From: Candidatus Poribacteria bacterium
GTDB taxonomy: Bacteria > Poribacteria > WGA-4E > WGA-3G
Length of the DNA: 64,000 bases
Reading direction: 5' to 3'
Assembly: GCA_963663765.2 (NCBI GenBank)
Contig: CAXXUA010000007.1
Location: forward strand, 64,001 to 128,000
In this document: positions 18,841 to 43,905 of the stretch, piece after piece
How positions within the stretch are numbered: position 1 is the first letter of the stretch
How the letters are laid out: each line of letters opens with the position of its first letter
Notes under the pieces: generated by a model
Databases searched by the model: none
What the model was told of the DNA's origin: nothing
What the model saw: the letters and a program-made list of their open reading frames with translations, nothing else
Program-made: the position numbers and the translations under genes

Positions 18841-19025
18841 AGGGTTGTTTTATGCATATTACACGATACCTGAGAAAATCGCGACCGGCAAAACAAGAAA
18901 TCCAACGGTATGAATGCGCGTATGGCATTCCCCGGGTATGAATGCCTTTTGGCATTCCCCGGTTCGTTACTACCGCGGGATTTCATTTTTTAGAAATCCG
19001 AACATTAGGCAAACTGAATAACCCT
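18841..19025. mobile_element. MITE family D (GGGTT...GAATAACCC ends) with an inserted micro-element C at 18889-18960
   Basis: Interior matches 58520-58604, which lacks the insertion. Confidence 0.65.
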
Positions 19026-19028
19026 ACC

Positions 19029-19074
19029 AATTCCCAAAACTTCTTGACATAAATTCCCAAAACTTCTTGACATA
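19029..19074 (+). repeat. Exact 23-bp tandem duplication containing a TTGACA -35 box
   Basis: aattcccaaaacttcttgacata x2, upstream of the glycogen synthase gene. Confidence 0.85.
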
Positions 19075-19133
19075 TTCATGTTTTGCGTGGTATTTTAAAC
19101 AATCTAAAGTTATTGTATAGGTGAGGTGAGAAC

Positions 19134-20882
19134 TTGAGTATTGTTGTTCACGTTACACACGAAGCAATCCAAAAAATGGGTGGAATCGGTGCAGTATTGG
19201 AAGGGTTGCTAACAACACGTAGCTACAACGAAGGGATTGAGCGTACGTTTCTTGTCGGACCGCTTTTTTCTGGTGCCGATTTAGGAGCATTGGATTCAGT
19301 GTTGTATCATGCAGTCGAAGGTATTAGGACAACACCACACGCTGACGCACTGAGTGATATTGAAAAGACTTTTCATGTTGAAATTGTCTATGGACTAAGG
19401 CGTTTTGAAGGTAAAGATCACGAGGTCGTTACACTGACAGATGTATTGTTGATTGATGTATCTAATGGTAATGTAGACTTAGTGGGTCAGTTCAAGTGGC
19501 AACTCTACGAACATTTTGGCATTGAATCAAGCCGTTACGAGAATCAATGGGAGTTTGAGGAATATGTCCGTCTTGCTGAACCTGCTTATGATGCGTTACG
19601 GGTACTCATGGGTGAAGAAACCAGTACGCCAGTGTATGTTATATCACATGAGTTTATGGGGATGCCGCTTGCACTCAAAACGCAGATTGAACGGAAAAAC
19701 GGTAATGGTGCATCAAATATGCGGACTGTCTTTTATGCTCATGAAGTTGCGACAATACGACCTATCGTTGAAGGACATCCCGGTCATGATGTTCGTTTTT
19801 ACAATGCTTTAGAACAGGCTAAGAATGAAGGTAAGTTAATCCGTGACGTGTTTGGGGATCCGTTCTGGTATTACAAGCACGCATTGATTGACAAAGCGCA
19901 TCTCTGTGATACGATCTTTGCTGTTGGTGATCTTGTTGTAGATGAACTCCGCTTTCTGTCACAACCGTTTGAATCGTATCCTATCAATCTTGTTTACAAT
20001 GGAATACCTGCTTTTGAGACGAGTATGGAGGATAAGTTAGAGTCAAAATCTCGTCTTCAAAAGTATACCAGAACGCTTCTTGACTATCGTCCTGATTATG
20101 TATTTACACATGTCACACGTCTTGTCAAAAGCAAAGGATTGTGGCGTGATCTACAAGTGTTAACACATTTGGATTCACTGCTTGCATCTAATGACAAGAC
20201 TGCGGTGTTGTTTATTCTATCAACAGAGATTGCAACGGGTCGTCCACACGAGGATATTCGTGAAATGGAACGTGAATATGGTTGGCCTGTCCACCATAAA
20301 ATCGGTTATCCTGATTTGGTAGGTGCGGAGATAGAATTGAACAATGGTATCTCCGCGTTTAATTTACAGTCTAAAGCAATTAAGGTCGTTTTTGTCAATC
20401 AATTTGGTTGGGATCAAGCGTCTTGTGGCACACGAATGCCAATGGATATGGAGTTTATGGACATTCGTAAAGGGAGTGATGCAGAATTTGGACAGTCAAT
20501 CTATGAACCTTTTGGTATTGCGCAAGTAGAACCACTTAGTTTTGGTGCGATCTGTGTTGTCAGCAATGTATGCGGATGTTGCGGTTTCATCCAACGTGCT
20601 ACTGATAACAACGAGGTGCCGAATGTTGTTATTGCTGACTATACGCACCTGAATTCGCCTCCGAAGTCTTTAGAAAATGTCTTGGACATCGGTTTAGCGG
20701 AACGGACACAGATTGAAGTTGAGAATAGCCGTGACATTGCAGCGAAACTTCTTGGTCGTCTACCAAGAAAACAACGTGACGTTGAGGATATGATTAGAGA
20801 AGGTTATGAGATTGCCTCTCGAATGAGTTGGGAAGTTGTCGTTAGGGATTATTTCTTGCCTGGGTTGAAACAGGCGTTATGA
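19134..20882 (+). CDS. Glycogen synthase-like glycosyltransferase (GT3-like)
   Basis: N-terminal HEAIQKMGGIGAV, SHEFM, SIYEPFG; glgB nearby. Confidence 0.7.
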   Translation: MSIVVHVTHEAIQKMGGIGAVLEGLLTTRSYNEGIERTFLVGPLFSGADLGALDSVLYHAVEGIRTTPHADALSDIEKTFHVEIVYGLRRFEGKDHEVVTLTDVLLIDVSNGNVDLVGQFKWQLYEHFGIESSRYENQWEFEEYVRLAEPAYDALRVLMGEETSTPVYVISHEFMGMPLALKTQIERKNGNGASNMRTVFYAHEVATIRPIVEGHPGHDVRFYNALEQAKNEGKLIRDVFGDPFWYYKHALIDKAHLCDTIFAVGDLVVDELRFLSQPFESYPINLVYNGIPAFETSMEDKLESKSRLQKYTRTLLDYRPDYVFTHVTRLVKSKGLWRDLQVLTHLDSLLASNDKTAVLFILSTEIATGRPHEDIREMEREYGWPVHHKIGYPDLVGAEIELNNGISAFNLQSKAIKVVFVNQFGWDQASCGTRMPMDMEFMDIRKGSDAEFGQSIYEPFGIAQVEPLSFGAICVVSNVCGCCGFIQRATDNNEVPNVVIADYTHLNSPPKSLENVLDIGLAERTQIEVENSRDIAAKLLGRLPRKQRDVEDMIREGYEIASRMSWEVVVRDYFLPGLKQAL

Positions 20883-20920
20883 TGACTTAGTAAATTTTAG
20901 CACAAAAGGATATTATCATT

Positions 20921-21781
20921 ATGCAAAATGTTCGTAATTCTCATGAGCCTATGCCGTTGGCTCCTGCTGAGAAGTTGATGGCTCCGGAACAGAAGTTCTT
21001 CTTTGATCTTCGTGGTTGGATTTTATTACCATCGGTCTTATCGGAATCGGAAATAGAAGTGATGAAAACGGAAGTGTATGCTGGTGCCAAACATTGTTAT
21101 CAAGGTGCACTTCAGAATTTACTTGATCATCCTGCAATTGTTGGAATTCTAAATGAAATTGTTGCGGATGAACGTTTTATATTTGATGATTGCTACGGTT
21201 TTCGGTGTGAGAATTCGTTTACTACGGTCAGGCAGCCTGGGTGGAAAACTCCATCTGAAAGAGGTACTGCAGTACCACATGTCGTGCGTCCGCCTCAACA
21301 AGCGAATGCAGTGCGGTATCAGGTGTCAGGTGGTAAGATATTTGCTGGACTCACCCGTGTGGTTTGGGAACTGGAGGAGGTGAAAGCAGGACAAGGAGGT
21401 ACTACTTTTCTCACAGGTTCGCACAAGGCTCACTTCAACTATGGTGGGCCGGATCCAAATCGTCCGAATATTAGTGAATCACCTTGGGAAGAAAAAATAA
21501 AGGATCTGATGGATGACTATAGTTGTCCGGCAGGGTCTGCGCTTATATTCACTGAAAGTCTGATACATGCGACCAACAACTGGACGAATCCTGACAATCC
21601 GCGTTGTGCTGTGTTTAATTGTTACAACTCAATCTGGGCTCAATGGTATCGGTTGAATCTAAGTCATGAAATAATAGAAAAGATGCCTACAAAACGTCAA
21701 TCCTTATTCCGTGGGACGTGGGCGATAGGCGGTGGTCCTGGTGGAAACCGTCAGTATTCGTTGGATAATACGACCAAATAA
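20921..21781 (+). CDS. Phytanoyl-CoA dioxygenase (PhyH)-family protein
   Basis: QKFFFDLRGW, GSHKAHF, FTESLIH. Confidence 0.75.
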   Translation: MQNVRNSHEPMPLAPAEKLMAPEQKFFFDLRGWILLPSVLSESEIEVMKTEVYAGAKHCYQGALQNLLDHPAIVGILNEIVADERFIFDDCYGFRCENSFTTVRQPGWKTPSERGTAVPHVVRPPQQANAVRYQVSGGKIFAGLTRVVWELEEVKAGQGGTTFLTGSHKAHFNYGGPDPNRPNISESPWEEKIKDLMDDYSCPAGSALIFTESLIHATNNWTNPDNPRCAVFNCYNSIWAQWYRLNLSHEIIEKMPTKRQSLFRGTWAIGGGPGGNRQYSLDNTTK

Positions 21782-21806
21782 TTCCAAGACTATTAAGGAG
21801 ATATAA

Positions 21807-22646
21807 ATGTCAAAAGAAACGTTAAATGATGTACCTGTGCCAATGACTGAAGAACAGAAGTTTTTCTTTGATTTGCGCGGTTGGATTTTATTACCATCAT
21901 TATTGTCTGACTCGGAAATAGAAGATATGAAAGCAGAAGTGTATGCAGGGGCAAGGCAATGTTATCAAGGTGCACTTCAATCGCTACTTGACCATCCTGG
22001 GATTGTCGGTATTCTGAATGAGATTCTGTCCGAAAACCCTTTCGTCCATGATGATTGCTACGGATTTAGATGTGAAGGATCATTCACGACTGTCCGAGAA
22101 TCTGGTTGGAGCAAGTCTTCACGAGGTGACAACGGTTTACCACACGTCGTGCGACCTCCACAACAAGCAAATGCAATGCGGTATCAGGTCGCAGGTGGAA
22201 AGATATTTGCCGGATTAACACGTGTTGTGTGGGAACTTGAGGAGGTAAAAGCAGGACAAGGTGGCACCTCTTTTCTAAGCGGTTCTCATAAAGCACATTT
22301 CAACTATGGAGGCCCCGATCCCTATCGTCCGAATATCGGTGAATCTCCTTGGGAGGATAGCATGCGGGAGATGATGGAGGACTATAGCTGCCCACCCGGT
22401 TCAGTGGTTATTTTCACCGAAAGCCTTGTGCATGCTGCGAATGATTGGACGAATCCTTCTAATCCTCGGTGTGCGGTGTTCAATTGCTATAACTCTATTT
22501 GGGCACAGTGGCATCGGTTGAATTTGGGTCATGAGATTATTGAAACAATGCCGACGAGAAGACAATCGTTGTTCCGCGGGACGTGGGCGATTGGTGGTGG
22601 TCCTGGTGGTAATCGTGCGTATTCACTGGATAATAGCACGATGTAA
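21807..22646 (+). CDS. PhyH-family protein, tandem paralogue of the previous gene
   Basis: Long identical stretches shared with 20921..21781. Confidence 0.75.
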   Translation: MSKETLNDVPVPMTEEQKFFFDLRGWILLPSLLSDSEIEDMKAEVYAGARQCYQGALQSLLDHPGIVGILNEILSENPFVHDDCYGFRCEGSFTTVRESGWSKSSRGDNGLPHVVRPPQQANAMRYQVAGGKIFAGLTRVVWELEEVKAGQGGTSFLSGSHKAHFNYGGPDPYRPNIGESPWEDSMREMMEDYSCPPGSVVIFTESLVHAANDWTNPSNPRCAVFNCYNSIWAQWHRLNLGHEIIETMPTRRQSLFRGTWAIGGGPGGNRAYSLDNSTM

Positions 22647-22825
22647 AAGAGTTTTGCGTGCTGCTATATCTTATAGTAAAATCCATAATTTTTTGGACAC
22701 GACGGTAGGTTCGGTTTCCTAACCGAACCTAGACGTCAATTTAAGTTAGAAGTTCTCTATTCTTGTGTAAGTGAAACCTTGGATGTTCTAATTCCTTCAG
22801 ATGGCACCTTTATCGTAGGTCTTTC

Positions 22826-23063
22826 TTTTACCCATAAGTTTTTGGGTATTGTCCGTTAAGTCTTTTGTGGGTGCCTATTGCTCAAAAACACCTGAAAACT
22901 GACCAATATTTTAGATGGTAGAATACCGTTATAGGCTTTTTAGACAAGTTTCACAAGATTTTTTAGTTCTTATGACCAGTTTTCTGTAATCTATCGGGGT
23001 TAGAAACCCCTCCTACAGCAGCATGTCGTGCCTTTGTACCTCCAATTTGACTTATGGGTAAAA
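22826..23063. mobile_element. MITE family F (TIR TTTTACCCATAAGT)
   Basis: 14-bp inverted ends; internal REP cggggttagaaacccctcctac. Confidence 0.65.
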
Positions 23064-23070
23064 GTAAGAT

Positions 23071-23138
23071 CGTAGGGGCGGGGTTTCCCCGCCCGATTGG
23101 TAGTTTGTTTACACGGGCGAGGAGACCTCGCCCCTACG
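23071..23138. repeat. GTAG REP doublet (REPIN-like)
   Basis: cgtaggggcggggtttccccgccc ... gggcgaggagacctcgcccctacg. Confidence 0.8.
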
Positions 23139-23188
23139 ATGTGTGCGAGGATTAGCGGACTTAAATAGACGTCTATGGTGCGGTGTTG

Positions 23189-25249
23189 TTAATTCTGGTC
23201 TGCGGCTAATACCAATGCACTTCGGGCAGGGACGTAGAGTTGGATAGATTGAGTATGTCCCTCTATTGCTACGTCTTGCCAAGGATAATGGACTCCTTCA
23301 ACTGCACCGAAACCACCAAAATTGGTGTCATCTGTATTGAGAATGAGAAGGTAATCCCTTTGTTCAGGAACGGGTATACGCCAATCTTTGACAGAATTTG
23401 TCGGATGGAAGTTGAAGGCGAACACAAGATTACCGCGCGTATAGATTATCTGCTTTGCGTCCTCATGAATGAACAGCAAATGTATGTCATCATCAGAGAG
23501 TAAATGGCACTCTGTATCAAGTAGTTGCATGGCGATATCAAAAGCGTTTAAGTGTTTGTAATAGAGTGTATCATCATCAACGAGAAGCCACTGTCTGCGT
23601 GCATACCAGTAGGAGTTGTTGTTACCAGCACGAGGGAAGTCTATCCATTCCGGATGACCGAATTCATTACCCATAAAGTTGAGATACCCCTCTCCACCTA
23701 AGCTAAATGTGAGAAGTCGAATCAGTTTATGCAGTGCTACGCCACGTGCAATGCGAAGACTCGGTGTGATCACACTCATATTCGTATAGAGTTCGGCATC
23801 CATCAACTGCATTGCAAGCGTTTTGTCTCCGACAATACTTTGGTCGTGACTCTCAACATAAGCGATGTGTTTTTCGTCCCTACGGCGATTGCGTAACATA
23901 CCGTATATTTCACCGATGTGCCACTCTTCGTCCATTTTCTCCTTCAACAACCGGATCCAATAATCTGGTATCCCCATGGCTAATCGATAATCAAAACCGA
24001 GTCCGCCTTCATTGATGGGGCGCGCGAGACCGGGCATGCCACTCATATCTTCAGCAACGGAAATTGCGTTTGGGTTAACAGCATGGACGACATCGTTTGC
24101 TAACATCAGATATGTAAACGCATCTAACTCGACATTGTCATCAAAATATGCATCGTAGTGGGAGAACTTTTTGCCAAGTCCGTGATCCTTATAGAGCATG
24201 CTTGTAACACCATCAAATCTAAAGCCGTCAAACCTATAGGTTTCTAACCAATAACGGATATTACTGAGTAGGAACCGCTGTACTTCGTATTTACTATAAT
24301 CAAAACAGAGTGAATCCCAAGCTACATGTTCTCCTTTTGCACCTGCGTGAAAGTATTGATGATCTGTGCCGTCAAAGCGGTTCAATCCTTCGTTGATGTT
24401 TTTCACAGCATGACTATGCACCAGATCCATAATGACTAGCAACCCCATACCGTGTGCAGTATCAATGAGTTCTTTCAGTTCTTCAGGTGTTCCAAAACGG
24501 CTTGATACAGCGAAGAAATTACTTACGTGATACCCGAAACTTGCATAATATGGATGCTCCATAATTGCCATCAGTTGTATGGTGTTGTATCCTAAATTGG
24601 CGATTCTGGGTAGTACGTTTTGTGTGAATTCAACGAATGTACCGACCTTTTCATCCTCCTGTGCCATACCGATGTGTGTTTCGTATATGCGTATTCCTTC
24701 TTTGTTGAAGTCTAAGTTTGGAACTTGATTTTTCCATTGATAGGGATTGGTAGGATGCCAATATTGTCCTGTGAAATCGGTATCATTTTCTTGAATGACG
24801 CGCTGGATATATGCCGGGATTCTATCATGCTGACCTTGATCAGATCTGACATGTACCTTCACGCGACTTTCGTGCGTGAAGCGATTCGCATAGTGTGTAT
24901 CGGGTAGAAACAGATGCCAAATACCCCATTTATCCACGGACATGGGGTGCGTATCACGGTTCCACTCGTTGAAGTCTCCAATAAGTGATAGGTATTTTGC
25001 ACCTGGTGCCCACTCGCGATACCACACACCGCTTTCGTCATCATTTTCCCCACGGTTGAATCCGAAATAATGATGACCTTGGCTGATTTCACCTAAGATG
25101 CCGTCAGTTTTCTCAATTTTTGCTTTGAAACTTTGGTAGTGCTTATGCCTTTCACGCAATGGTGTTATATAGGGTTTTAGAAGTGGATCAAGTTCAATAA
25201 GGTGTGTACCGTCAGATCGCAGTTTTGTCATAGTGGTGATAAGTGACAT
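23189..25249 (-). CDS. glgB: 1,4-alpha-glucan branching enzyme (GH13_8-like)
   Basis: MEHPYYASFGY, SSRFGTPEELK, FDGFRFDGVTSM, AEDMSG, YVESHDQ, EFGHPEWIDFPR. Confidence 0.93.
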   Translation of the reverse strand: MSLITTMTKLRSDGTHLIELDPLLKPYITPLRERHKHYQSFKAKIEKTDGILGEISQGHHYFGFNRGENDDESGVWYREWAPGAKYLSLIGDFNEWNRDTHPMSVDKWGIWHLFLPDTHYANRFTHESRVKVHVRSDQGQHDRIPAYIQRVIQENDTDFTGQYWHPTNPYQWKNQVPNLDFNKEGIRIYETHIGMAQEDEKVGTFVEFTQNVLPRIANLGYNTIQLMAIMEHPYYASFGYHVSNFFAVSSRFGTPEELKELIDTAHGMGLLVIMDLVHSHAVKNINEGLNRFDGTDHQYFHAGAKGEHVAWDSLCFDYSKYEVQRFLLSNIRYWLETYRFDGFRFDGVTSMLYKDHGLGKKFSHYDAYFDDNVELDAFTYLMLANDVVHAVNPNAISVAEDMSGMPGLARPINEGGLGFDYRLAMGIPDYWIRLLKEKMDEEWHIGEIYGMLRNRRRDEKHIAYVESHDQSIVGDKTLAMQLMDAELYTNMSVITPSLRIARGVALHKLIRLLTFSLGGEGYLNFMGNEFGHPEWIDFPRAGNNNSYWYARRQWLLVDDDTLYYKHLNAFDIAMQLLDTECHLLSDDDIHLLFIHEDAKQIIYTRGNLVFAFNFHPTNSVKDWRIPVPEQRDYLLILNTDDTNFGGFGAVEGVHYPWQDVAIEGHTQSIQLYVPARSALVLAADQN

Positions 25250-25281
25250 TGTGTTCTGACTATATTTTGAAAGGTGTTCTT

Positions 25282-26124: not shown

Positions 26125-26297
26125 ATAAAAGATCTTTCTTCAGGATATTGTATTTAGTAAATTCATTTTACAATTAGTACTATACCTTTGTCAATATAGT
26201 TTTAGGGTTATTCAGTTCTAATAATCTATCGTTATGCTAGTTAACTTTGGGTTAAAATTAGTGATATATATAGGAATGTTTGTGGTATTCTTGTTTG

Positions 26298-28576: not shown

Positions 28577-28742
28577 CAAGACTTACGTAGTTTTCTTGAT
28601 TTAATCAAGAATTATGATGAAAATGATGTAATTATCAGCAATCTTATAGGTTTCCAGCGCGCTTACAAAGCGGCAAATCAAGAAATCAACGGCAAGAATG
28701 CCATTTAGGCATTCACCGCCTAACGTTTTTGCGTAAGTCCTG
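28577..28742. mobile_element. MITE family A (IS701-type ends) containing micro-element C
   Basis: caagacttacgta...tgcgtaagtcctg; flanked by ATGTTT on both sides. Confidence 0.85.
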
Positions 28743-29090: not shown

Positions 29091-29967
29091 GAGCGTATCT
29101 CATAAATATTTTAGTGACATACGTATGCAAGCAAGAAGTACAAAACCTAAATAATTTTCAGCGTAGTATTCCCAACGAACAACTAAACGCCGATAATCCT
29201 CTAACCAACTGAAAAATCTTTCTACTTTGAAACGACGCTTATACCGTCGTAAACGCCGACCATCCTGTGTAGCCTGTTTTTTACGATTCTTTTTATGAGG
29301 TGCTACCATTTCAATACCACGTTCCCTCAAAGAAGCATCTAAAGGATCAGAGTCATAAGCTTTGTCCCCAATCAACACTGCGGGGTTTTCGGATGTCCAA
29401 CACGCATCCAATGCCGGTTCAACCAAGCGCACTTCATGACAAGAAGCCTTTGTAATCAGAACACTCACAGGTCTACCAGACTTTTCTGTAATCGCTACCA
29501 GTTTTGTCCCTTTGCCGCACTTCGTTGGACCAACACAAATGCCTCCTTTCTTGGCAGGAACGAATTTCGCATCAATACAACACTCACTCATATTTATTTT
29601 TTTTCGTTTTTCAAGCATTTCTGTGAGTACCATTTGAACTTTTTCAAGCGTTCCATCCGATGACCATTGCTGAAAACGACGATGACAGGTTTGATAGGGT
29701 GGATACTTTTCTGGTAAATCCCGCCAGGGAGCTCCTGTTCGCAACACCCACAGTATCCCATCTAACACTTCTCTATTACCACGCCAAGGTCTCCCCGGTT
29801 TATCCGATGGTGGTTCTGGCATTAGGGGTTCAATAATTTCCCATTCCTTATCACTAAGTTCCATTCAAATCATCCCCTTACTTATAGTAGAAATAGATAT
29901 AGTTTAGCAGAGATGATGAGAAATTAAAAGAAAAAATCAAACCATTTAATATTTATGAGATACGCTC
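29091..29967 (-). mobile_element. IS5-family insertion sequence
   Basis: 20-bp TIR gagcgtatctcataaatatt; TA on both sides. Confidence 0.9.
29100..29864 (-). CDS. IS5-family transposase
   Basis: WVLRTGAPWRDLP, GDKAYDS, YKRRFKVERFFSWL...RRL. Confidence 0.93.
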   Translation of the reverse strand: MELSDKEWEIIEPLMPEPPSDKPGRPWRGNREVLDGILWVLRTGAPWRDLPEKYPPYQTCHRRFQQWSSDGTLEKVQMVLTEMLEKRKKINMSECCIDAKFVPAKKGGICVGPTKCGKGTKLVAITEKSGRPVSVLITKASCHEVRLVEPALDACWTSENPAVLIGDKAYDSDPLDASLRERGIEMVAPHKKNRKKQATQDGRRLRRYKRRFKVERFFSWLEDYRRLVVRWEYYAENYLGFVLLACIRMSLKYL

Positions 29968-30130: not shown

Positions 30131-30346
30131 CATATCGTCCCTACCAAATCAACGCCAAATGCGCCAAATCAACGGTATGAATGCCATTAAGGCATTCCCC
30201 GTATGGCATTTGTCGGGACTAAAGAGGATGTACTATGACGTTTTTCTATAAACATATCGTCCCTACCAAATCAACGCCAAATGCGCCAAATCAACGGTAT
30301 GAATGCCATTAAGGCATTCCCCGTATGGCATTTGGCGGGACTGAAG
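30131..30346 (+). repeat. Two-unit 122-bp tandem repeat; each unit is a GTCCCTACGGGAC palindrome split by nested element C
   Basis: Uninterrupted units are at 40640-40821. Confidence 0.85.
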
Positions 30347-33260: not shown

Positions 33261-33271
33261 AATGTTTCCTA

Positions 33272-33636
33272 CAGGACTTATGCAGTTTTCTTGATTTAAT
33301 CAAGAATTATGATGAAAATGATGTAATTATCAGCATTTTTAGAGGTTTCCAGTGCGCTTACATGAAGATTAAAAAAATAATTAGGTAATTTTATCTAACC
33401 TACCCTGGTAGGCGTGCTTTGTAAGCGCGCTGGTACATCAAGTCCCAAGAGTGCGCTTACAAAGCACCAAATCAAGAAATCAACGGTATGAATGCCATTT
33501 AGGCATTCCCCGGGTATGAATGCCATTTAGGCATTCCCCGCCTACCGTATGAGAAATATTTATTACCCAATTAATAAATTAATCTAATAAATTAATCTTC
33601 ATCAAAGCGCGCATACCGTTCGGTGCGTAAGTCCTG
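33272..33636. mobile_element. MITE A containing MITE B (33362-33602), which contains element C (33468-33539)
   Basis: caggactta...taagtcctg with a 5-bp TCCTA duplication; inner atgaagattaa...ttaatcttcat. Confidence 0.9.
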
Positions 33637-33638
33637 TC

Positions 33639-36095: not shown

Positions 36096-36155
36096 AAAAA
36101 CTGTTGAATTTCGTTCTAAGCTAGATATTAGAAATTTAAATTGAGGGTTGATTAC

Positions 36156-37796
36156 TTATTTTGAAATCAACATTGACACCTGATGCGGGTCGATATTAGA
36201 ACGGTGATAGGTGAGAATGTCTTTCTTGTTATCCCGATTTATGTCAACCAGTTTGATATTTTGCTCATCTTCAGGCATATTGATTTTCACTTTTTGTGGT
36301 CGCTTCATAAATAGATGGTTTCCTTGTACACCAAGGAAGACGTGCATTTCATTCCAGTTTTTCCCTATAAGTAAATCCAAACGTCTATCCCCGTTTACAT
36401 CACCCAATAGTACTGCTGGGAAGAAGACTCTTTCTGTTTCAAAGATGTCAAGCTTAGGTCTAATTTTGCGTCTGGTTGCGGGCTGGTCTGGGAATTTTCC
36501 ATCTTCCATACGATAAAACTCAAGGTCTATTGCGATGGATTTGCCAACCATTGCGCGAGTCATCCCACCGATAGCGGTTTTCACATCATTGAACATAACA
36601 TCAATCTCACCATTACCATCAAAATCCAGCATTATTACAGATGAATAACCCCATGGCATCAACGCGCCTGCTATGCCTCGTGGTTTGATTATCATCCCAA
36701 TATCTTTGTCAAATGATATTCCGTTTTGGTTTGATGATCCGAAATGTACCTCGTACATACTGCGGTGTTTGCCGATACTACGTCCGTTTAATGAGTGAAT
36801 TATCATGTCAGTTACACCATCACCGTTCATATCACGGAAAGTGTGTAATACTCTTCGTTTGGTATTTTCTCTAAATCCGAAGATAAGTGAGAACATGTTC
36901 TCACCACTGAATCCAAATGCAATTGAATATGCACCGTCAGTGTCAAATGGCACGTCTGGGGTGAAAGCGACAGGTGTTGTTGAAAACCTTCCATCAGTAT
37001 TTTGTAGAAATACATCAAAATGATCTCTGTTCCAGAATACAATATCTTTTCGTTCATCTTGGTTGTAATCCATTTGATGAACACGACTGAGATACCATAG
37101 AACAGTCAACCGGTTTATCCCTACTTCTCGGTAAATAATCCCATCTTCCATTGAGATCTCATCAAGGAACGGATCGGGTGGACCGAGTTTTATCGGTGCA
37201 GTGAAGGAACCATTGTTTAATTGAGTGGAAACCCTAAATCCATCAACATCTGGTAAAATGAAGTCTTCCATTCCATCGCCGTTCAAGTCACGAGTGATGT
37301 CAATATGGGGTATTTCATTCTCATGGATAGGATTAAAATTAGTTGTGACGTTCATCAGCTTGCGTTCCACCAATGAATCAGTATCAAACCAACTTAGACG
37401 CCCGGGTTGATATGTGATGAGTCTATCACGTCCATCAATTGGTGCAATGTCAACGAACAACACTTTTTGCTTTAGTTTGGTGTCAATACTCAGTGTCCAC
37501 TGCTCATCTCTGAAAGTATAGATATGTAATTTGTGTGCCTTGTTCTTGCCAGTACTCACTGTCTTGCCAGTACTCACTGTAACAAGATTCGCGAAATCTT
37601 CTCCCAGAAGAAAACCGGTCAAAGTGGTTTGCTGGTGTTTTGCAGTTCCGATGCTGATTTTATGCTGTTCATAAGAAAATGGTTTGACGTTCTCTGGTTG
37701 GACATCTTCACGAACAGTCTTTGCACAACCTGAGAAGCACACGCAAAGTATCGCTATAGAAAGCATGCGTAGAGAAAGTGAACTAAAAATATGCAT
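36156..37796 (-). CDS. FG-GAP/VCBS-repeat lipoprotein
   Basis: Lipobox FSGC; DLNGDG, DMNGDG, DFDGNG and DVNGD repeats. Confidence 0.8.
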   Translation of the reverse strand: MHIFSSLSLRMLSIAILCVCFSGCAKTVREDVQPENVKPFSYEQHKISIGTAKHQQTTLTGFLLGEDFANLVTVSTGKTVSTGKNKAHKLHIYTFRDEQWTLSIDTKLKQKVLFVDIAPIDGRDRLITYQPGRLSWFDTDSLVERKLMNVTTNFNPIHENEIPHIDITRDLNGDGMEDFILPDVDGFRVSTQLNNGSFTAPIKLGPPDPFLDEISMEDGIIYREVGINRLTVLWYLSRVHQMDYNQDERKDIVFWNRDHFDVFLQNTDGRFSTTPVAFTPDVPFDTDGAYSIAFGFSGENMFSLIFGFRENTKRRVLHTFRDMNGDGVTDMIIHSLNGRSIGKHRSMYEVHFGSSNQNGISFDKDIGMIIKPRGIAGALMPWGYSSVIMLDFDGNGEIDVMFNDVKTAIGGMTRAMVGKSIAIDLEFYRMEDGKFPDQPATRRKIRPKLDIFETERVFFPAVLLGDVNGDRRLDLLIGKNWNEMHVFLGVQGNHLFMKRPQKVKINMPEDEQNIKLVDINRDNKKDILTYHRSNIDPHQVSMLISK

Positions 37797-38334
37797 GTAT
37801 ACCCGCACTGACATAAACGCCAGCAAGACCTTCAGATTGAGAATTACTGTTTTCTCTACCAATACCTTGACCAATACCCACGTTCAAGCCAAGTGGAATT
37901 CCACCCAGCGAAAACACAAGCTCACCACCAAAAGCTATTCCAGCAGCCAGTGTTGATATATTAACAGTTTCATTCTGCATATTCACCTCAGATTGAAATC
38001 GCCACCCACCTTCCAACGTGAAATATAACCGTGCTTGGTTCCATTTACCTTGATGCTCATATATTGCATAGGAAACCCCAGCACCTAACATGTGGTCACC
38101 AATCTGATCGTTTAGAATAAAACGTCCGACCGCTTGTAGGTATACAGGTTTCAGTCCATTGTATTTGAAACTAATGCCACCATATGCGGGTGTAGCACCA
38201 TGAGAACCGATACCGAAGTTCTTGGTTAAGTTTGATTCTTGTGCTTGAGCAGAGAAAACAAGAAATAGACTCATTATGAATATAAGTCGTGAAACGGAAA
38301 CTATCTGTTTTTTTTGTGTTGTATTGTATATCAT
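37783..38334 (-). CDS. Small putative outer-membrane beta-barrel protein
   Basis: Signal peptide AQA, Gly/aromatic strands, C-terminal HAYF. Confidence 0.65.
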   Translation of the reverse strand: MIYNTTQKKQIVSVSRLIFIMSLFLVFSAQAQESNLTKNFGIGSHGATPAYGGISFKYNGLKPVYLQAVGRFILNDQIGDHMLGAGVSYAIYEHQGKWNQARLYFTLEGGWRFQSEVNMQNETVNISTLAAGIAFGGELVFSLGGIPLGLNVGIGQGIGRENSNSQSEGLAGVYVSAGIHAYF

Positions 38335-38370
38335 TGTTACCTATATTTAATAATCTGATGTGAAAATTTG

Positions 38371-39195
38371 TCATCTTCGTTTCTGCAGATTTCTACGTGT
38401 GAAGATATTATCGTCAACCTTTGAATTGAATGTAGCATTTAACCATTTGACAACCGTTTTGTGTCCCTCTTTGTTTTGTGGAATCATTTCCATGACCGTT
38501 GGGATGGTTTTCTTGTTAAAAGTTTTGATTTCTTTGTAGTTCAACACACGCATTAAATTATCTTTTTCGTCGTAGAAATGCTGCCAAACCGGTAAGTAGT
38601 CGCTTTTTCTGACAGCAGTTTCAATCTTACCCCATACAATTGCAGTGTCCTCTTTTGGAATAAGTTCTACATATAGCAATTTTGGGGATGCATCTTCTGG
38701 TGTTATCATACGGTAGGTATAGTCGTCCAGCATAGATGATTCTTTGACTAAATCATCATTGGTGAAATCGGACCCCATCCATGAACCCATCATCATTGAT
38801 GGTGAAATCTTTATTACCTTGTTGACTTTTGGGAGATAATTCCACATCTGTTTTCCGATGCGTAATGTAGTGACATTTTCCTCTTTTTTTGGTGCAGTAA
38901 TTCGTATGAAGGTTTTGTCCATCCCCTTTGTCCAAATCAACATTTTCAATGTGCGTTCGTAATTTGGTGTGACGATGTGCATCTCCATGTCAGCATGACT
39001 TGTATTACTGCGGTAAAGTTGATCTATGTGTTTGATTATGTCTTCAACTTTGGAATCTGCTGATACATTCGCTGTCAATAAAGATGATAAAGAAGTCAAG
39101 AGCACAAATAGTAATATTAACCATGTGAAGTGTTTTGGATGACTTTTTATATAAGTGAAATAATGAGACCACACCGTTTTTTCCTCTATTACCAC
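38371..39195 (-). CDS. Outer-membrane lipoprotein-sorting (LolA-like) protein
   Basis: MWNYLPKVN, SWMGSDFTNDDL, FTRRNL. Confidence 0.85.
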   Translation of the reverse strand: MVIEEKTVWSHYFTYIKSHPKHFTWLILLFVLLTSLSSLLTANVSADSKVEDIIKHIDQLYRSNTSHADMEMHIVTPNYERTLKMLIWTKGMDKTFIRITAPKKEENVTTLRIGKQMWNYLPKVNKVIKISPSMMMGSWMGSDFTNDDLVKESSMLDDYTYRMITPEDASPKLLYVELIPKEDTAIVWGKIETAVRKSDYLPVWQHFYDEKDNLMRVLNYKEIKTFNKKTIPTVMEMIPQNKEGHKTVVKWLNATFNSKVDDNIFTRRNLQKRR

Positions 39196-39334
39196 AAAGC
39201 TTATTTACATATCTGATTATACAATTATAATACTTCAAAATGATATACAGTGCAAGGTATAATCTGAGTGTCGTATGTATAGAGTTTTGTACAATAATTA
39301 TTTTTGCGCGTAATTTGCGCCGCTGAAATACAAT

Positions 39335-39456
39335 CAGGACTTACGCAGTTTTCATGATTTAATCAAGAATTGTGATGAAAATGATGTAATTTTCAACATT
39401 ATTTGTGCTTCCAGCGCGCTTACAAAGCAAACCTACCGTTGGGTGCGTAAGTCCTG
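39335..39456. mobile_element. MITE family A, uninterrupted 122-bp copy
   Basis: caggacttacgca...tgcgtaagtcctg, identical to the IS701 TIR. Confidence 0.88.
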
Positions 39457-40143
39457 CTATGTAAGGAATCACTGCAAATTGTATGTGCATTTCTTGAGAT
39501 TTCCTAAGAATTTTCTACTACTAAAACCGTACCGTACGGTACGGTTTTTTCGGTTTGTGGTACGGTTTTGAAAACATGTAATGCGTCCAGTGCTTATAAG
39601 GCGTTATCGGGGTATTTGTTGTGTTTTTTTCTAAATTATTTTCAATTTTTGGTACGGTTTTTTGTTTATGTGTTTTTTTGTGTTTGGGTGTTGGTTTTGC
39701 ATAGTGTTTTTGTTGTGTGCTTTTCTTTTGTTTATATTATATGTGATTTTTTATGGGTTTTGTAGTTTTTTGGGTGTCTGTTTATTGGGATTTCCAATAG
39801 ATAAGCAATAGATATCAATTAGGTTCTTGTTAGTAGTATATTTTGTCTGAACCAGGATTCTCAAATCAAGAAAAGAAGAAATCAACGGTGTGATTGCCCT
39901 ATGGCATTCCTCGAGTCTTTGTGTTCCCGCTTTTGTTTCCACTCATCAGAGATGGCGGGGAATGCCATATGAAGATTAATAAATTGATCTTCATACAGGT
40001 TGTGCTACAACACAAGCAGTCGTTTAGGTTTGTTAAACATATAGATCAAAGTGTTCAGGTAATTCTAAAATCTACTATAACTTTCAGTAAATCTCAATAT
40101 TATACCATTTTCATGTAATAATGTCTCATTAGCAGCGGAAATC

Positions 40144-40505
40144 GGGTGTGTAAAGTTTTGGTTACTGAGCGTAGGGGCGGGGTCTCCACGCCCGAACAGA
40201 AACTTTACGCAAGCGAGGAAATGAAGATTAAAAAATACTTTGGGTAATTCTCCTAATCCCGCCACGGTAGACGAACTATTCCACCCTGGTATGCGTGCTT
40301 TGTAAGCGCGTTGTTAGAACTTGACATCCAGCGCGCTTACAAAGCACGCATATCAACTGAGAAATATTTGATTACCCAATTTAATAAATTAATCTTCATA
40401 ACCTCGCCCCTACGATGTCCACAGTTCCCTAACGTCAAGCAAGCTTTATAGCAACTGGACGGACTTCTTTTAATATCAGGGTTTCTACAAAAATTTTACA
40501 CACCC
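40144..40505. mobile_element. MITE H with nested MITE B (40221-40399); 9-bp flanking duplication GCGGAAATC
   Basis: Inverted copy of 4841-5023, interrupted in its REP loop. Confidence 0.9.
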
Positions 40506-40639
40506 GCGGAAATCGGGTGTGTAAAGTTTTTGCACAGAGGTACTAACTTTTGTTCTCTTTAGTCCCGTAGGGACGCAATGTTTATAGAAAGACGTTATCA
40601 CATCCCCTCTCTTTAGTTCCGTAGGAACGACATAGAAGG

Positions 40640-40821
40640 ATAAACATATCGTCCCTACGGGACTAAAAAGACGTGGGGATATGTCTTTCTATAAACATAT
40701 CGTCCCTACGGGACTAAAAAGACGTGGGGATATGTCTTTCTATAAACATATCGTCCCTACGGGACTAAAAAGACGTGGGGATATGTCTTTCTATAAACAT
40801 ATCGTCCCTACGGGACTGAAG
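40640..40821 (+). repeat. 3.5 x 51-bp exact tandem repeat with palindromic core GTCCCTACGGGAC
   Basis: Units start at 40640, 40691, 40742 and 40793; inverted related copies at about 40555-40635. Confidence 0.92.
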
Positions 40822-40859
40822 AATATGGTTAATATTAACAATATTTCTTTATATTGACA

Positions 40860-41003
40860 CCTAATGAAGTTTGACAATCAAAATCGGTAGTTGAATTCGT
40901 AGGGGTTGGGTTCCCCAACCCGTTTGGTTTCTGGGTTTGCGTAGATCATGTGTGGAAACCATGCCCCTACGAATACACAACTTGAACGTCAAACTTCATT
41001 AGG
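40860..41003. mobile_element. MITE (TIR CCTAATGAAGTTTGAC) with an internal GTAG REP doublet
   Basis: 16-bp perfect inverted ends. Confidence 0.75.
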
Positions 41004-41525
41004 ACTCTGTGTCCGCAATCTCTCATTTAATCAGTTGCGGCGGGGCACAGAGACCCGGGGAATGCCAAAAGGCATTCATACCGTTGATTTCTTGATTTAC
41101 CGGTCGCGACTGTGTTGAATACGGTTGCGACTACCAGCATGCGATGGACATAATCAGAGTAATCTGGGATTGTGTCTGAACCAGGATTCACAGGATTATC
41201 GGATTTGCAGGATTAGAGTTTTGTTCGTTATCCTCCTATCCAAAAGTAAGCATAAATACACATCAAACACCCGTGCCAGGGTAAATCTGTAAATCTGTAA
41301 ATCCCGCGGAATGCCCTTTGGCGAATGCGCTTGGTAGAATACGCGTATGGTATTCTACCAAGCGCATTCGCCATGATTCATACCGTTGATTACTTGATTT
41401 GGTCATTCCGTACACACCGACTCGACAACAGCAGAGATTGACACACAGTGTTTAGATAATGAACACTGCTGATCAAATTGTGACACAATTTGGTTGAAAT
41501 TTGCTGAATTTCCAATGATTCACTT

Positions 41526-41541
41526 TGGCACGATATTTGCT
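41526..41541 (+). promoter_or_regulatory. Consensus sigma-54 promoter
   Basis: TGGCACGATATTTGCT, 34 bp upstream of the ATG at 41576. Confidence 0.8.
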
Positions 41542-41575
41542 CATAGTTTTGTTATATTTTCAAAAGGGGTTTATT

Positions 41576-42574
41576 ATGAATAAAGGATTTTTGATACTTA
41601 GCATACTGCTCTCCATGATGTTCGTTGCGTGTGGCGACGATGAGGATACGACTGTCAATCAAATGGATATGGAAACCCCAACTGTCAAAACTTATGATAC
41701 AGAGATACTCGTAGGGCATACGGATTTTGTCAGAAGTGTTGCGTTCAGTCCGGATGGCAACACACTTGTCAGTGGCGGGGATGACCACACCCTCCGCTTG
41801 TGGGACACAAGCAATCGCGCGCTTATCCAGACCCTCACTGGACATACGGATGCTGTTGAATACATCGCGTTTAGTCCGAATGGTCGTACTATCGCCAGTG
41901 GCAGTAGCGACAAGACCGTCCGGTTGTGGAACGCAAACGATGGCATGCATCTCCACACCCTCACTGGGGAAATGTACCAAATCTTTTGCGTTACGTTTAG
42001 TCCGGATGGTCGCACTATCGCCAGTGGCAGTTGGGGCGGCACCATTCGTTTGTGGAACGCAAGCGACGGCATGCTTCTCTACACCATTGACGCGCATAGG
42101 AGAGTTACCTTGAGCGTAACGTACAGCCCGGATGGCAACACACTTGTCAGTGGCGGTCTTGATGGAGCCATCCGGTTATGGCACCCACGTATTGGCACCC
42201 GGCTCGATCTCCTATATAAGCAGCAGGGGAGTGTCATGAGTATCGCATACAGTCCGGATGGCAATACTATCGCTAGTGCCGGTAGTGACAATACCATCCG
42301 TTTGTGGAACCTATATTACAACATCAATATCAGCACGTTGAAGGGGCATACAAGTTGGGTCAACAGCGTTGCGTTCAGTCCGGATGGTCGCCTACTCGCC
42401 AGTGGCAGTCGGGACGGCACCATTCGTTTGTGGAACGGAAGAAACGGCATGTATCTCGACACCCTCACTGGGCATGAGGCGATTGTTTTGAGTGTTGCGT
42501 TCAGTCCTGATAGTCGCACGCTTGCTAGTTGCGGTGAAGACAACACCGTCCGATTGTGGGATGTGAGTGAGTGA
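41576..42574 (+). CDS. Seven-bladed WD40-repeat lipoprotein
   Basis: Lipobox FVAC; seven GH...V.SVAFSPDG..LASG..D.T.RLW-type repeats. Confidence 0.9.
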   Translation: MNKGFLILSILLSMMFVACGDDEDTTVNQMDMETPTVKTYDTEILVGHTDFVRSVAFSPDGNTLVSGGDDHTLRLWDTSNRALIQTLTGHTDAVEYIAFSPNGRTIASGSSDKTVRLWNANDGMHLHTLTGEMYQIFCVTFSPDGRTIASGSWGGTIRLWNASDGMLLYTIDAHRRVTLSVTYSPDGNTLVSGGLDGAIRLWHPRIGTRLDLLYKQQGSVMSIAYSPDGNTIASAGSDNTIRLWNLYYNINISTLKGHTSWVNSVAFSPDGRLLASGSRDGTIRLWNGRNGMYLDTLTGHEAIVLSVAFSPDSRTLASCGEDNTVRLWDVSE

Positions 42575-43067
42575 TGCTGGTACCACCACAACCCAATGTA
42601 GGGCGAAATCAAAGGTATGAATGGGCGCATGGCATTCCCCGGATTTCGCGGATTGGTGTACGGAATCACGGATTACGCGGAGGATGTCTCACGTGTTGGT
42701 AGGAGCGACCTCCTGGTCGCGACTGTGTTGAAGCCGGTCGCGACCAGGAGGTCGCTTCTACCAACGTGTAAGTTCCATCTGCGTAATCCGCGATTCAGAA
42801 CGTCCAATCTGCGTCCTCTGCGATTCTGCCCGATATTTTTCTGCTTAGGATATGTATTTTCTACGCAATCCGCCCTCATGGGGGTATCTTCTCCGCGTTT
42901 TCCGTGAAATCTGCGTAATCCGTGATTCCGTACCCCAGAGTAGCGGAGTACATTCCCCTGCGTTGGTAGGAGCGACCCGGGGAATGCCCGAAGGCATTCA
43001 TACCGTTGATTTCTTGATTTACTGGTTTCGACCGTGTATCTTTCTTGTGGGAGGGGTTATCAACCCC

Positions 43068-43875
43068 GACCCTCTACAGCAATTCAAACAACACACACGA
43101 TTATCGCAGCTACCAGACGACCTCTTTGATGCCACCTACAACGCCATCATTCAGATACCGATTCAAACCCGTGCTGCACTCCAGCAACTCAACCGCGACA
43201 CTGCCGTGCAACTTGCTGAAATCCACAACTCGCACATCCTCAGCGCACAACAAAAAACTGACCAGATACAACGGATTGAACAGCAAGCCGCCCAACGTCG
43301 CATCCAAATAGAGCATCAAGCCAACCGAGCCAAAATACAGAGTTTCCAGAAAGTCGTCCAAAACTTCATCACAGGCATTGGTCGCATGATAGCCGAGCAG
43401 CTCAAACTCCGCGCCGCAGCCGCAATCACCAACACCCTCGTCGGGACACAGACAACCGCAACCCGTCCCGACACCAGCGACAATCCCATTAGTAGCATCA
43501 TCAGTACGTTTGTCCCCGTGCTTGCCAGCAAAGCAAAACCCCGCACTCGCCATCGGTAGCGGATTAGCACTTGGTGCAGCCAAACTCTACGCCGACAGCT
43601 TCGACGACCCCATCAACGATGCAATCGCACGACAAGCCGGCATCAACCAAGCACATCACCCTGCAACGGAACTCGGCAGACGTTCCGCACTTGACCTCAC
43701 AAAACACTTCGTTGACGGCTTCACCACAGAAACAACGAACCCAACCAGCACAGACACCGCACCTGTCGTCCGCAACGAAATCAAACTTATCATCGGCACC
43801 CAAGAACTCAAAGCCATATACGAGGAGACCCAACGTCAAATCAAAACAGGCACCATCACACCCACCTCATCGTAG
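43068..43875 (+). pseudogene. Frameshifted fragment resembling a phage tail tape-measure C-terminus
   Basis: Q/A/I-rich helical ORF with no credible start; frameshift near 43530 (gcaaa-gcaaaa); strongly C/A-rich composition. Confidence 0.4.
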
Positions 43876-43905
43876 GGCGGGGTCGCCGTGGAATGCCATT
43901 CTTTC

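Follow-up and report, generated by a model that had tools for sequence, protein, structure and literature searches.

A 35-nucleotide non-coding hairpin inserted into REP-type palindromes of sponge-associated Poribacteria

Copies in the window and architecture of the unit

The window, a 64-kb stretch of a Candidatus Poribacteria MAG, holds a dispersed set of short hairpins, which we placed by direct reading combined with a genome-wide regular-expression search; all ten copies listed in a first-pass annotation of this DNA were present. Against an expectation of zero, the 29-nt consensus (three mismatches or fewer; 100 shuffles) matched the window four times, and the stem pattern GAATGCC-N3-7-GGCATTC matched it eight times, again with none expected by chance. 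The array at 18889..18960 lies upstream of a glycosyltransferase gene, and the copy at 42606-42640 directly follows the stop codon of a WD40 gene. The copies and their host repeats are:

18889/18899-18960, + strand: array of two hairpin modules with a degenerate head (CAAAACAAGAAATCCAACGG), within a GCGACC-type REP
28674-28717, + strand: type A copy with two-octamer head and two mismatches, occupying site B in a repeat derived from REP_A
30145-30214, + strand: element of the sister 'type B', with head CAAATCAACG and stem GCCAAATGC/GCATTTGtC, occupying the site GTCCCTAC^GGGAC
30165-30200, + strand: type A copy nested in the type B loop, junction GCGC^GTATGG
30267-30336 (or 30337), + strand: second type B element, in the next unit of the GTCCCTAC repeat that holds 30145-30214
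30287-30322, + strand: type A copy nested in the second type B loop (direct reading and regular expression)
33405-33467, + strand: inverted REP_A pair (GTAG-tagged REP: GGTAGGCGTGCTTTGTAAGCGCGC ... GTGCGCTTACAAAGCAC)
33468-33539, + strand: type A array, two-octamer head, two hairpin modules joined by GGG
39862-39912, + strand: degenerate type A copy, stem GATTGCC/GGCATTC, in GGATT-repeat context
40560-40820, + strand: GTCCCTACGGGAC repeat units without an insert; this repeat hosts type B elements
41057-41099, - strand: type A copy, two-octamer head; left flank GCGACC REP, right flank another MITE
41306-41401, - strand: type A copy that has, in place of its own loop, a foreign hairpin (24-bp stem)
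42606-42640, + strand: diverged type A copy that lacks the leading C (AAATCAAAGG.., loop GGGCGCATGG)
42700-42770, + strand: empty GCGACC-type REP doublet (GGTAGGAGCGACC..GGTCGCGAC..GGTCGCGACC..GGTCGCTTCTACC)
42979-43021, - strand: type A copy, two-octamer head, inside a GCGACC-type REP, ..AACCAGT^..^GGGTCGCTCCTACC

The array at 33468-33539 (hairpin dG -6.9, z -3.1) interrupts AAAGCAC^GCCTACC within the 3' arm of the inverted REP_A pair, the opposite arm of which (33405-33430) is empty, and the copy at 28674-28717 has the insertion context ..CTTACAAAGCGG^..^GCCTAAC. As had been proposed, the GCGACC-type REP, seen empty in the doublet at 42700-42770, hosts the copies at 18889, 41099 and 43021, in the second case on the left flank only; the flanks of this copy (41057-41099) are chimeric, and those of the copy at 42606-42640 derive from two different repeats. 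The composite at about 30267-30336 folds as nested hairpins (dG -19.1, z -4.95), and the copy with the foreign hairpin at 41306-41401 reaches dG -32.7 (z -10.2). Two right-end fragments had also been listed, each limited to about 10-12 nt of the right arm: the one near 39957 adjoins another repeat and so probably represents a copy that was split in two, whereas the one at 43888 found no confirmation.

The unit can be written as [C]AAATCA(AGAAATCA)n-ACGG + TATGAATGCC-loop-GGCATTC-CCC. Its core measures 35-36 nt rather than the approximately 44 bp first assigned to it, although a 44-nt form does exist, namely that with two of the 8-nt head repeats, whose number varies. The unstructured head of 9-10 nt, (C)AAATCAAC(G), extendable by these repeats, is followed by a 7-9-bp hairpin which constitutes the element's end; in the DNA fold a single 7-bp hairpin forms at the 3' end and the 5' 20 nt remain unpaired. 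The genome contains about 500-600 hairpin modules in 518 arrays, with a head of 10 nt in 263 arrays, 18 nt in 162, 26 nt in 30, 34 nt in 12 and a longer one in two, while 49 are headless. Single units make up 411 of the arrays and direct tandems the remainder, in which CCCC is joined head-to-tail directly to CAAATCA and the duplication periods are 36 nt and 27 nt. The ends are fixed, information content falling at both of them (508 copies), and asymmetric, with one variable base at the 5' end (leading C present or absent) and no terminal inverted repeats; the consensus carries neither a GTAG nor a CGTC tag on either strand. These observations support the earlier description of a discrete, non-coding unit lacking terminal inverted repeats, with asymmetric ends and one hairpin near the 3' end. 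Our search found no coding version and no long element carrying head and hairpin apart; any mobilisation must therefore occur in trans, in agreement with the non-autonomous character assumed from the start.

Sister families have the head in common and differ in their stems, which still pair via compensatory changes: GAATGCC/GGCATTC (293), GAATGCT/AGCATTC (21), GAATACC/GGTATTC (9), CAAATGC/GCATTTG (49+17), CAGAAGC/GCTTCTG (13) and CGAATGC/GCATTCG (12). Changes on both sides occurred at seven of nine stem pairs, in rows pre-selected for having a hairpin; compensatory changes thus conserve the hairpin. Collectively, we show a REP-like, single-hairpin micro-element family with units of about 35 nt.

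Insertion sites, host repeats and distribution

Defining an empty site as the exact 12+12-nt flanks with nothing in between, we found an empty counterpart elsewhere in the genome for 189 of the 469 headed arrays. These matches fall into 55 flank classes from at least eight parent repeat families, not at one homologous position of a single parent repeat, and show no target duplication and always the same orientation. The junction is mostly C^G, with the general form ..C^G(G/C)..; the left flank is conserved at its last base alone (C in 131 of 191 flank classes), and the right flank begins with G in 153 of 191. Genome-wide, the site in REP_A, a GTAG-type REP and the element's main host repeat here, is filled 195 times and empty 1080 times, the GTCCCTAC repeat 119 and 595 times, and the sister-hairpin loop 62 and 113 times, with no reverse orientation at any of the three. 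The precise empty sites first proposed were borne out for AAAGCAC^GCCTAC and GTCCCTAC^GGGAC, to which the sister-hairpin loop GCGC^GTATGG adds a third. GGATT as the empty counterpart of the copy at 42606 was rejected, as the two flanks of that copy come from different repeats; GGATT..CAC^GGATT is a real target in other species. Hence, the micro-element is inserted precisely into other REP-type palindromes and into the loops of its own relatives, in one orientation and without duplication.

The proposal that it targets hairpin DNA holds in a loose sense only: the sites are located within or next to REP-type palindromes, yet no more than 35 of 195 distinct contexts have the junction inside a hairpin loop. 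At least one flank is repeated five times or more in 436 of the 469 arrays. Open frames of 300 codons or longer contain 12 of the 518 arrays, of which six are loose headless regular-expression matches and the others lie 44-149 nt from the frame end, consistent with the earlier statement that no intact gene is interrupted.

Searching related genomes for the same 20-mer with up to two mismatches, we detected the element in all 31 sampled genomes of one genus (g1) and in 40 of 45 of a second (g9), with single two-mismatch matches at most beyond them; an earlier genus sample gave 18 of 18. The family is therefore confined to two genera of sponge-associated Poribacteria, in which the shared 20-mer indicates long vertical persistence. 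The REP_A host repeat, in turn, is essentially private to this genome, its empty site occurring 915 times here against counts of 0-5 in each of 39 further genomes from the genus, and in other species the element occupies at least 15 further contexts, mostly palindromic. Since exact filled/empty pairs, many parent families and a two-genus spread coincide, the element is a discrete, insertion-capable unit, and such a 35-nt non-coding hairpin ranks with the smallest mobile elements observed in bacterial DNA, although its moving enzyme is one that we can only infer.

Copy number, however, exaggerates activity, given the tight link between loop variant and context (Cramér's V 0.62): TTTT accounts for 30 of 31 copies in P2, TATT for 18 of 18 in REP_B, GCGTAT for 27 of 36 in REP_A-GCCTGC and ATTAA for 43 of 60 in the sister loop. 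True insertions are therefore few, perhaps a few dozen; hitch-hiking on host repeats, together with tandem duplication, probably produced most of the copies. The same linkage would fit an element that is itself immobile, a module of composite repeats spread by recombination or gene conversion and then passively amplified. Such a module would also explain the chimeric flanks at 41057 and 42606, the host families that are always filled (for GAAAATCGCGACCGG.. and others, a search for the empty site found none) and the filled units that recur with the same spacer in arrays of a related genome (G051). Yet the same ends adjoin unrelated parent families, at least eight in this genome and a minimum of 15 others in further species, every such junction is base-precise with exact empty sites, copies are nested in sister-element loops, and the element reaches across two genera, unlike its main parent REP, which is private to the present genome. 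We consider this explanation rather improbable.

Array orientation agrees weakly and inconsistently with GC skew: 181 of 295 arrays are concordant (61%, p=1e-4), and the turning points of the two coincide on four large contigs, contig C15 being discordant. The genome G001 shows long same-strand runs (contig C3, 15+/1-; first 1.05 Mb of contig C4, 1+/18-), for the orienting of which its GC skew is too weak, and in the closed genome G017 a two-replichore pattern is absent.

Candidate routes of mobility

Both IS110 and HUH chemistry had been put forward in the first-pass annotation. The former finds no footing here: neither IS110 domain (PF01548, PF02371) matched in this genome (97.8% complete), while positive controls matched. 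IS110-family elements such as ISPpu9 are known for insertion into REPs, according to the accessible part of the source; nevertheless, given the missing domains, together with the absence of terminal inverted repeats and of target duplication, an IS110/IS1111-type or classical MITE-type non-autonomous element is highly improbable, the last two features speaking against a MITE identity.

HUH chemistry remains something that we infer. It is represented in this genome by a 1.75-kb tnpA+tnpB IS605 element (three full copies and one partial), whose end hairpins are unlike those of the micro-element, and by two RAYT genes, each with its own REP arrays; a search for a long element with the same two ends as the micro-element found none. 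Among RAYT/Y1 genes at 30 + 18 loci, none was flanked by the element, save as an insert in flanking REPs, the flanks being REP_B, the GTCCCTAC repeat or nothing. In the relative G051, the GTCCCTACGGGAC repeat stands on both sides of a Y1 (RAYT-like) gene, and the REPtron of this relative is the GTCCCTAC repeat, some units of which bear a type B insert; this Y1 type is absent from the present genome.

These data leave room for mobility by a non-HUH route, whether by an enzyme that both genera have kept or by a process based on RNA or repair, which we regard as possible though unlikely. Four of 40 genus genomes gave no match to PF01797 (Y1) and still hold copies (G001, 144; G010, 145; G044, 201; G032, 55), many of them exact: 81 copies in G001 and 89 in G044 are exact 20-mers, and G044, a single contig, has tandem 35-nt arrays. 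Copy number is uncorrelated with Y1 matches (rho -0.07, n=37) and weakly related to RAYT-type matches (rho 0.26, p 0.12). Moreover, no cognate gene was found near copies in 88 loci or in two hot spots, IS200/IS605 rules accommodate neither the target, C^G with a right flank rich in G/C, nor a lone hairpin, and the identity of the element sequence between two genera suggests a partner that is likewise conserved. On the other hand, the search yielded no candidate enzyme for such a route, single-copy genes may be missed in MAGs (marker-gene completeness 97% for G001, 92% for G044), and precise, duplication-free, one-orientation insertion, head-to-tail arrays and REP proximity are HUH behaviour.

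As a whole, the best explanation, to which we give about even chances, is that of an inserted REP-like micro-element, passively amplified and moved in trans by an HUH-type enzyme on single-stranded DNA. Such an enzyme would cut and join the element in single-stranded form, the likeliest candidates being REP-associated tyrosine transposases which, bound to neighbouring REPs, might cleave near them with low sequence specificity. The insertions themselves are at C^G(G/C) sites in or beside REP-type palindromes, sister loops included, and after insertion most copies probably multiplied passively, either along with the host repeat (REP, REPIN or MITE) or as head-to-tail tandem duplicates. According to the accessible part of the report on E. 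coli TnpA-REP (PMC3333891), that enzyme acts on single-stranded DNA only, requires a REP in cis, needs no more than a dinucleotide, to the left or right of the REP, for cleavage, and transfers strands, and has been proposed as the maker of tandem copies. The micro-element would then be a hyperparasite of REP/RAYT systems. Tentatively, we speculate that this 35-nt DNA exploits selfish repeats in this manner, moved either by the transposases that bind its host REPs or by an undescribed mechanism; the latter option gains weight because the four Y1-less genomes carry 55-201 largely identical copies. If it were true, some 75 genomes would offer natural replicates for finding the mechanism by gene association.

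Comparison with known systems

By comparison of features, the closest analogues appear to be the cyanobacterial SDR elements and the REP/RAYT systems. The very small non-coding repeats SDR1-8 of Nostoc punctiforme and relatives (Elhai et al. 2008, Genome Res 18:1484) reportedly measure 21-27 nt, have a hairpin conserved with compensatory changes, and lie nested in each other, in palindromic targets and in short tandem repeats; we know of no established mechanism for their mobility. Compared by description only, the present element shares with them the conserved, compensated hairpin, the nested insertion and the palindromic targets, but its 35-36 nt exceed the size reported for SDRs. In the accessible parts of the respective reports, SDR5 splits the HIP1 palindrome precisely between its nucleotides 3 and 4 (PMC4390886) and SDRs are reported in Nostocaceae only (PMC5861425), whereas here the host belongs to Poribacteria, HIP1 is under-represented in the genome, and the host repeats are GTAG-type REPs linked to RAYT genes.

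With IS200/IS605 elements and PATEs, the micro-element shares the absence of inverted terminal repeats and of target duplication, hairpin-bearing ends and strand-specific insertion; a bias to one replication strand, in that family the lagging-strand template, may be a further common trait, but the signal here is weak and inconsistent (181/295 concordant; no pattern in G017). It differs in having one hairpin instead of two subterminal ones, no conserved target tetra- or pentanucleotide and a length of about 35 nt, where those elements have at least 100 nt; moreover, the IS605 copies of this genome have other ends.

Like REPs and REPINs, it consists of a short hairpin with a conserved single-stranded tag, occurs in hundreds of extragenic copies, amplifies in tandem and persists vertically over long times in its lineage, and REPs inserted within other palindromes are on record (PMC3733652). 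Its tag, however, is CAAATCAAC in place of the GTAG or CGTC of REPs (the host REP_A does bear GTAG), it stands singly or in direct arrays and not in inverted doublets, and it flanks no RAYT gene at the 30 + 18 loci; unlike these repeats, it is itself a guest inside bona fide GTAG REPs.

Anatomy of the micro-element and its sister families

The short hairpin repeat of the window is real: a discrete micro-element, capable of insertion and housed within other repeats. The consensus proposed in the first-pass annotation proved genuine, since its 29-nt left part (up to three mismatches) matched the window four times vs. none in 100 shuffles, and the proposed hairpin GAATGCC-N3-7-GGCATTC matched eight times with zero expected. 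Direct site reading together with a genome-wide scan bore out every copy listed there; in the copy at 41306-41401, a foreign hairpin with a 24-bp stem sits within the loop. Across the source assembly (G000; 6.35 Mb, 15 contigs), in which the window spans C7:64001-128000, we counted 589 hairpin modules at no more than one mismatch per arm, while two mismatches per arm gave 518 arrays with 660 modules, the head being present in 469. The unit reads [C]AAATCA(AGAAATCA)n-ACGG, followed by TATGAATGCC, a 4-5-nt loop and GGCATTC-CCC; ACGGTATGAATGCC is present in 508 copies, in which the information content drops at about -15 and about +29. Heads contain one to six 8-nt steps (263, 162, 30, 12, 1 and 1 arrays, respectively), and arrays contain one module (411), two (93) or three to eleven (14). 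Two array types occur: either the whole 36-nt unit is repeated with the joint CCCC|CAAATCA, or a 27-nt hairpin module is repeated and joined by GGG.

The element hairpin folds at -6.9 kcal/mol (z about -3). Sister families combine a common head with different stems, so that AAATCAACG is followed by GTATGAATG in 409 cases, CCAAATGCG in 126, TCAGAAGCG in 14 and CCGAATGCG in 12, with a hairpin inserted into the loop in another 43 copies; stems are kept complementary via double changes. When 64 distinct variants drawn from many genomes were aligned, both sides had changed in seven of nine pairs. Pairing cells amounted to 89.5% vs. 23-53% in slid controls, a percentage that is partly built in because the rows were pre-selected by script for having a hairpin; the stem diversity is not. 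No Rfam family matched within the window, and an integron attC-like reading was dropped by inspection, the GTTRRRY core being absent. Another repeat, ending in ..TTAATAAATTAATCTTCAT, lies within element hairpin loops and splits them at about 39957 of the window and at C11:178755 and C4:101340 of G000, and at window 43900-43975 GTGTATACATTTATAC-like tandem units directly follow a GGAATGCC fragment.

Filled and empty sites and the target rule

An exact empty counterpart, i.e., the 12 nt of left flank directly joined to the 12 nt of right flank, exists elsewhere in G000 for 189 of the 469 headed arrays, in 55 flank classes. The most abundant hosts are occupied in a single orientation.

Host sites in G000 with filled and empty states
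AAAGCAC^GCCT(A/G)C (site B of REP_A, the GTAG-tagged host REP): filled 195, empty 1080, reverse orientation 0
GTCCCTAC^GGGAC (type B, the sister element): filled 119, empty 595, reverse orientation 0
Sister hairpin loop AATGCGC^GTATGG: filled 62, empty 113, reverse orientation 0

Both states are also seen at CAGCGC^GCYTACAAAG, the GCGACC REP, a MITE (GTAGGGCG^GGGTCT) and CGTAGGTC^GGGTAGAG. What is inserted reads C+AAATCA..CCCC, except in the MITE, where the target is G^G and the first C is absent, so the 5' end of the piece varies by one base. One refuting outcome named in the first-pass annotation, with every copy at the homologous spot of one parent repeat, is contradicted by the 55 flank classes and by at least 15 further contexts in other species, mostly palindromes, such as GGCGAGGTTAGGAAG^GCCTCGCC, ACCCAT^GGGT, GTTCCTAC^GGAAC, GGGGCACC^GGGACCCC, GGATT..CAC^GGATT and sister hairpin loops.

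Among 191 flank classes, C precedes the element in 131, G follows it in 153 and T stands at +4 in 144. At least one flank is itself repeated five times or more in 436 of the 469 arrays; the 33 in which neither flank is repeated look like diverged repeats. The earlier proposal that the element targets hairpin DNA stood only in part: junctions fall within the loop of a hairpin of at least 5 bp in 35 of 195 contexts vs. 36 of 390 displaced positions (9%) and 149 of 2000 random CG dinucleotides (7.5%), a twofold enrichment, but insertion into loops is not a general rule. A fixed position relative to GTAG was likewise rejected, as by reading it varies between hosts. C^G within or beside REP-type palindromes is the most fitting description of the sites.

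Public data and orthologous loci were also consulted for locus-specific alleles. The stretch is present as Logan contigs in 9 of the 12 public runs listed, with no RNA run listed among those that contain it, and in the four examined these contigs end at repeats, so that they reveal neither a filled nor an empty allele at any one locus. A contig joint from 30266 to 30338 in the public reads, which skips a 71-nt composite, has just 25-26 nt per side and probably derives from other copies of the repeat. At window 33261-33638, the 365-bp repeat-filled spacer that separates an ABC ATPase gene from an FtsX permease gene is wholly absent in the two nearest species, G016 and G036, in which these genes adjoin or share a few bases; therefore, orthologous comparison yields no element-level allele there. 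A metagenome scan with a unique left flank gave no matches.

Distribution, strand polarity and the number of insertions

The element was found in all 18 genus genomes first sampled and in none of 12 that represent other families within the order; a broader sample had it in 31/31 genomes of genus g1 and 40/45 of its sister genus g9, and beyond these two genera there were just single two-mismatch matches, comparable to a reversed-pattern control. All but one of the records listed as sharing the element are titled Candidatus Poribacteria, and neither viral contigs nor plasmids gave a match. REP_A, by comparison, is almost private to G000: its empty site occurs 915 times there vs. 0-5 times in 39 other genus genomes (present at all in 11), and its filled junction occurs 167 times there and 1-10 times in six of the 39. 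Some 31 REP_A units form an array with a regular 32-nt period at G000:C2:50450-51427.

Local hot spots were seen in G044 (C1:4.32-4.47 Mb, 33 exact copies in 150 kb) and G001 (C2:17-41 kb, eight in 24 kb), both in accessory islands with many WD40, TPR, collagen-like, Uma2 and AAA/DUF4276 genes. A WD40 gene also neighbors the element cluster of the window. The repeat-rich stretch of the window contains two DDE transposase genes (IS4/IS5-type; 29100-29864 and 44512-45570). In G000, a sigma-54 activator is present and HIP1 is under-represented, so the genome is not cyanobacterial.

Once thinned to one per 3 kb, 181 of 295 arrays in G000 are oriented in agreement with GC skew sign (p=1e-4), as are 127 of 205 outside REP_A and 99 of 171 empty REP_A sites. 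Per 100-kb window, orientation correlates with skew (Spearman 0.34) and hardly with gene-strand bias (0.02). On contigs C3, C4 and C6, cumulative skew and cumulative orientation turn within 15-40 kb of each other; on C5 both curves fall throughout, with minima 90 kb apart, on C13 the turning points are not coincident, and C15 is discordant. G001 contains long same-strand runs (C3, 15+/1-; first 1.05 Mb of C4, 1+/18-), which cannot be oriented given the weak GC skew sampled there, and the closed genome G017 has no clean orientation pattern. We read this as a real but modest chromosome-scale polarity, compatible with, and no proof of, insertion into one replication strand.

Copy number overstates activity, as the loop variant is strongly associated with context (Cramér's V 0.62).

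Prevailing loop variant by insertion context
CAGCGC^ sites: TTTT in 30 of 31
REP_B sites (another host REP): TATT in 18 of 18
REP_A-GCCTGC sites: GCGTAT in 27 of 36
Sister-loop sites: ATTAA in 43 of 60
REP_A-GCCTAC sites: ATTTA in 70 of 96

Moreover, some host families in G000 are always filled, and in arrays of the related genome G051 filled units recur with an identical spacer. Most copies were therefore probably amplified along with their host repeat; real insertions are far fewer than copies, and true activity is much below what copy number suggests. The window copies at 41057-41099 and 42606-42640 each have left and right flanks from two different parent repeats, which suggests recombination between element copies.

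Candidate enzymes and relation to known systems

Of the earlier interpretation, the discrete insertion-capable unit inside other repeats stands, and the chemistry is unproven. We favor an HUH-like single-strand reaction, given the precise duplication-free insertion, the single orientation, the head-to-tail arrays and the sites beside REPs. The E. coli RAYT requires a REP in cis, cuts on either side of this REP as well as in linkers, a dinucleotide being sufficient, and transfers strands; tandem copies from excised circles have been proposed (PMC3333891). A RAYT bound at the host REP and preferring C^G rather than C^T would explain the sites.

IS110 chemistry, also suggested at first, found no counterpart, as neither IS110 domain was detected in G000; a search for IS91 Y2 gave no match, with its control also silent. 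Six Y1 HUH matches were found in G000. Four of them lie in copies of a 1.75-kb tnpA+tnpB element, the end hairpins of which are unlike the small element. The fifth is a RAYT on C4 with REP_B arrays ahead of the gene; REP_B flanks recur in 5 of 30 loci of its orthologues, none of which is flanked by the element as such. The sixth is a RAYT-like gene (G000:C10:24550-25277, locus L026) that the contig end truncates and that may carry a frameshift; about ten REP_A units lie ahead of it, one with the element. Eighteen loci of other Y1 genes included one clear REPtron (a Y1 gene between its REPs), that of the GTCCCTACGGGAC repeat in G051 (L165, C21:2454000-2462400), where a 157-aa Y1 gene has unit arrays on both sides, some units with type B inserts. 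The GTCCCTACGGGAC unit also occurs at window 40560-40820 and 595+119 times in G000, in which no orthologue of this Y1 gene was found.

PF01797 was found in 36 of 40 genus genomes. The four without a match, G001, G010, G044 and G032, still contain 144, 145, 201 and 55 copies, respectively, including exact 20-mers in G001 (81) and G044 (89), along with a seven-unit 35-nt array in G044. Copy number does not follow Y1 matches (rho -0.07, p 0.69, n=37) and only weakly follows RAYT-type matches (rho 0.26, p 0.12). Both the Y1-less genomes and the missing correlation speak against an HUH-like reaction, unless the copies are relics or genes were missed. ORFs within 1.5 kb of copies at 88 loci belonged to metabolic families alone, with no recurring transposase, and the G001 and G044 hot spots contained neither HUH genes nor a recurring transposase. 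The long element with the same two ends that the first-pass annotation envisaged was not found in G000; orphan heads and headless hairpins were array continuations, nested inserts or chance matches.

Insertion of REPs within other palindromes is on record (PMC3733652). The element in a REP in a MITE reveals layered parasitism among bacterial repeats, and the finding also explains short-read assembly breaks in intergenic regions of these symbiont genomes. Among the best matches in the literature on repeats, we found no Poribacteria work, a weak sign that the element is so far undescribed. Natural contrasts are at hand (from 1 to more than 500 copies, genomes with vs. without HUH genes, several closed genomes), and together with abundance, sharp ends and the many genomes they open the question of what moves elements this small to comparative genomics and simple oligonucleotide biochemistry.

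To our knowledge, there is hardly any record of mobile DNA below 40 nt, the sole described case being the cyanobacterial SDR elements (2008), which still lack a mechanistic explanation. The nearest analogue is thus formed by the SDR families of Nostoc, likened here by description. As Elhai reportedly described in 2008, SDRs are 21-27 nt long, form a hairpin with compensatory changes, and occur inside one another as well as within short tandem repeats. SDR5 is placed exactly between nt 3 and 4 of HIP1 (PMC4390886), a motif under-represented in G000, and a further study states that SDR-like repeats were not seen outside Nostocaceae (PMC5861425). The Poribacteria element, not obviously related to SDR on this descriptive comparison, represents a second such tiny mobile system, in another phylum.
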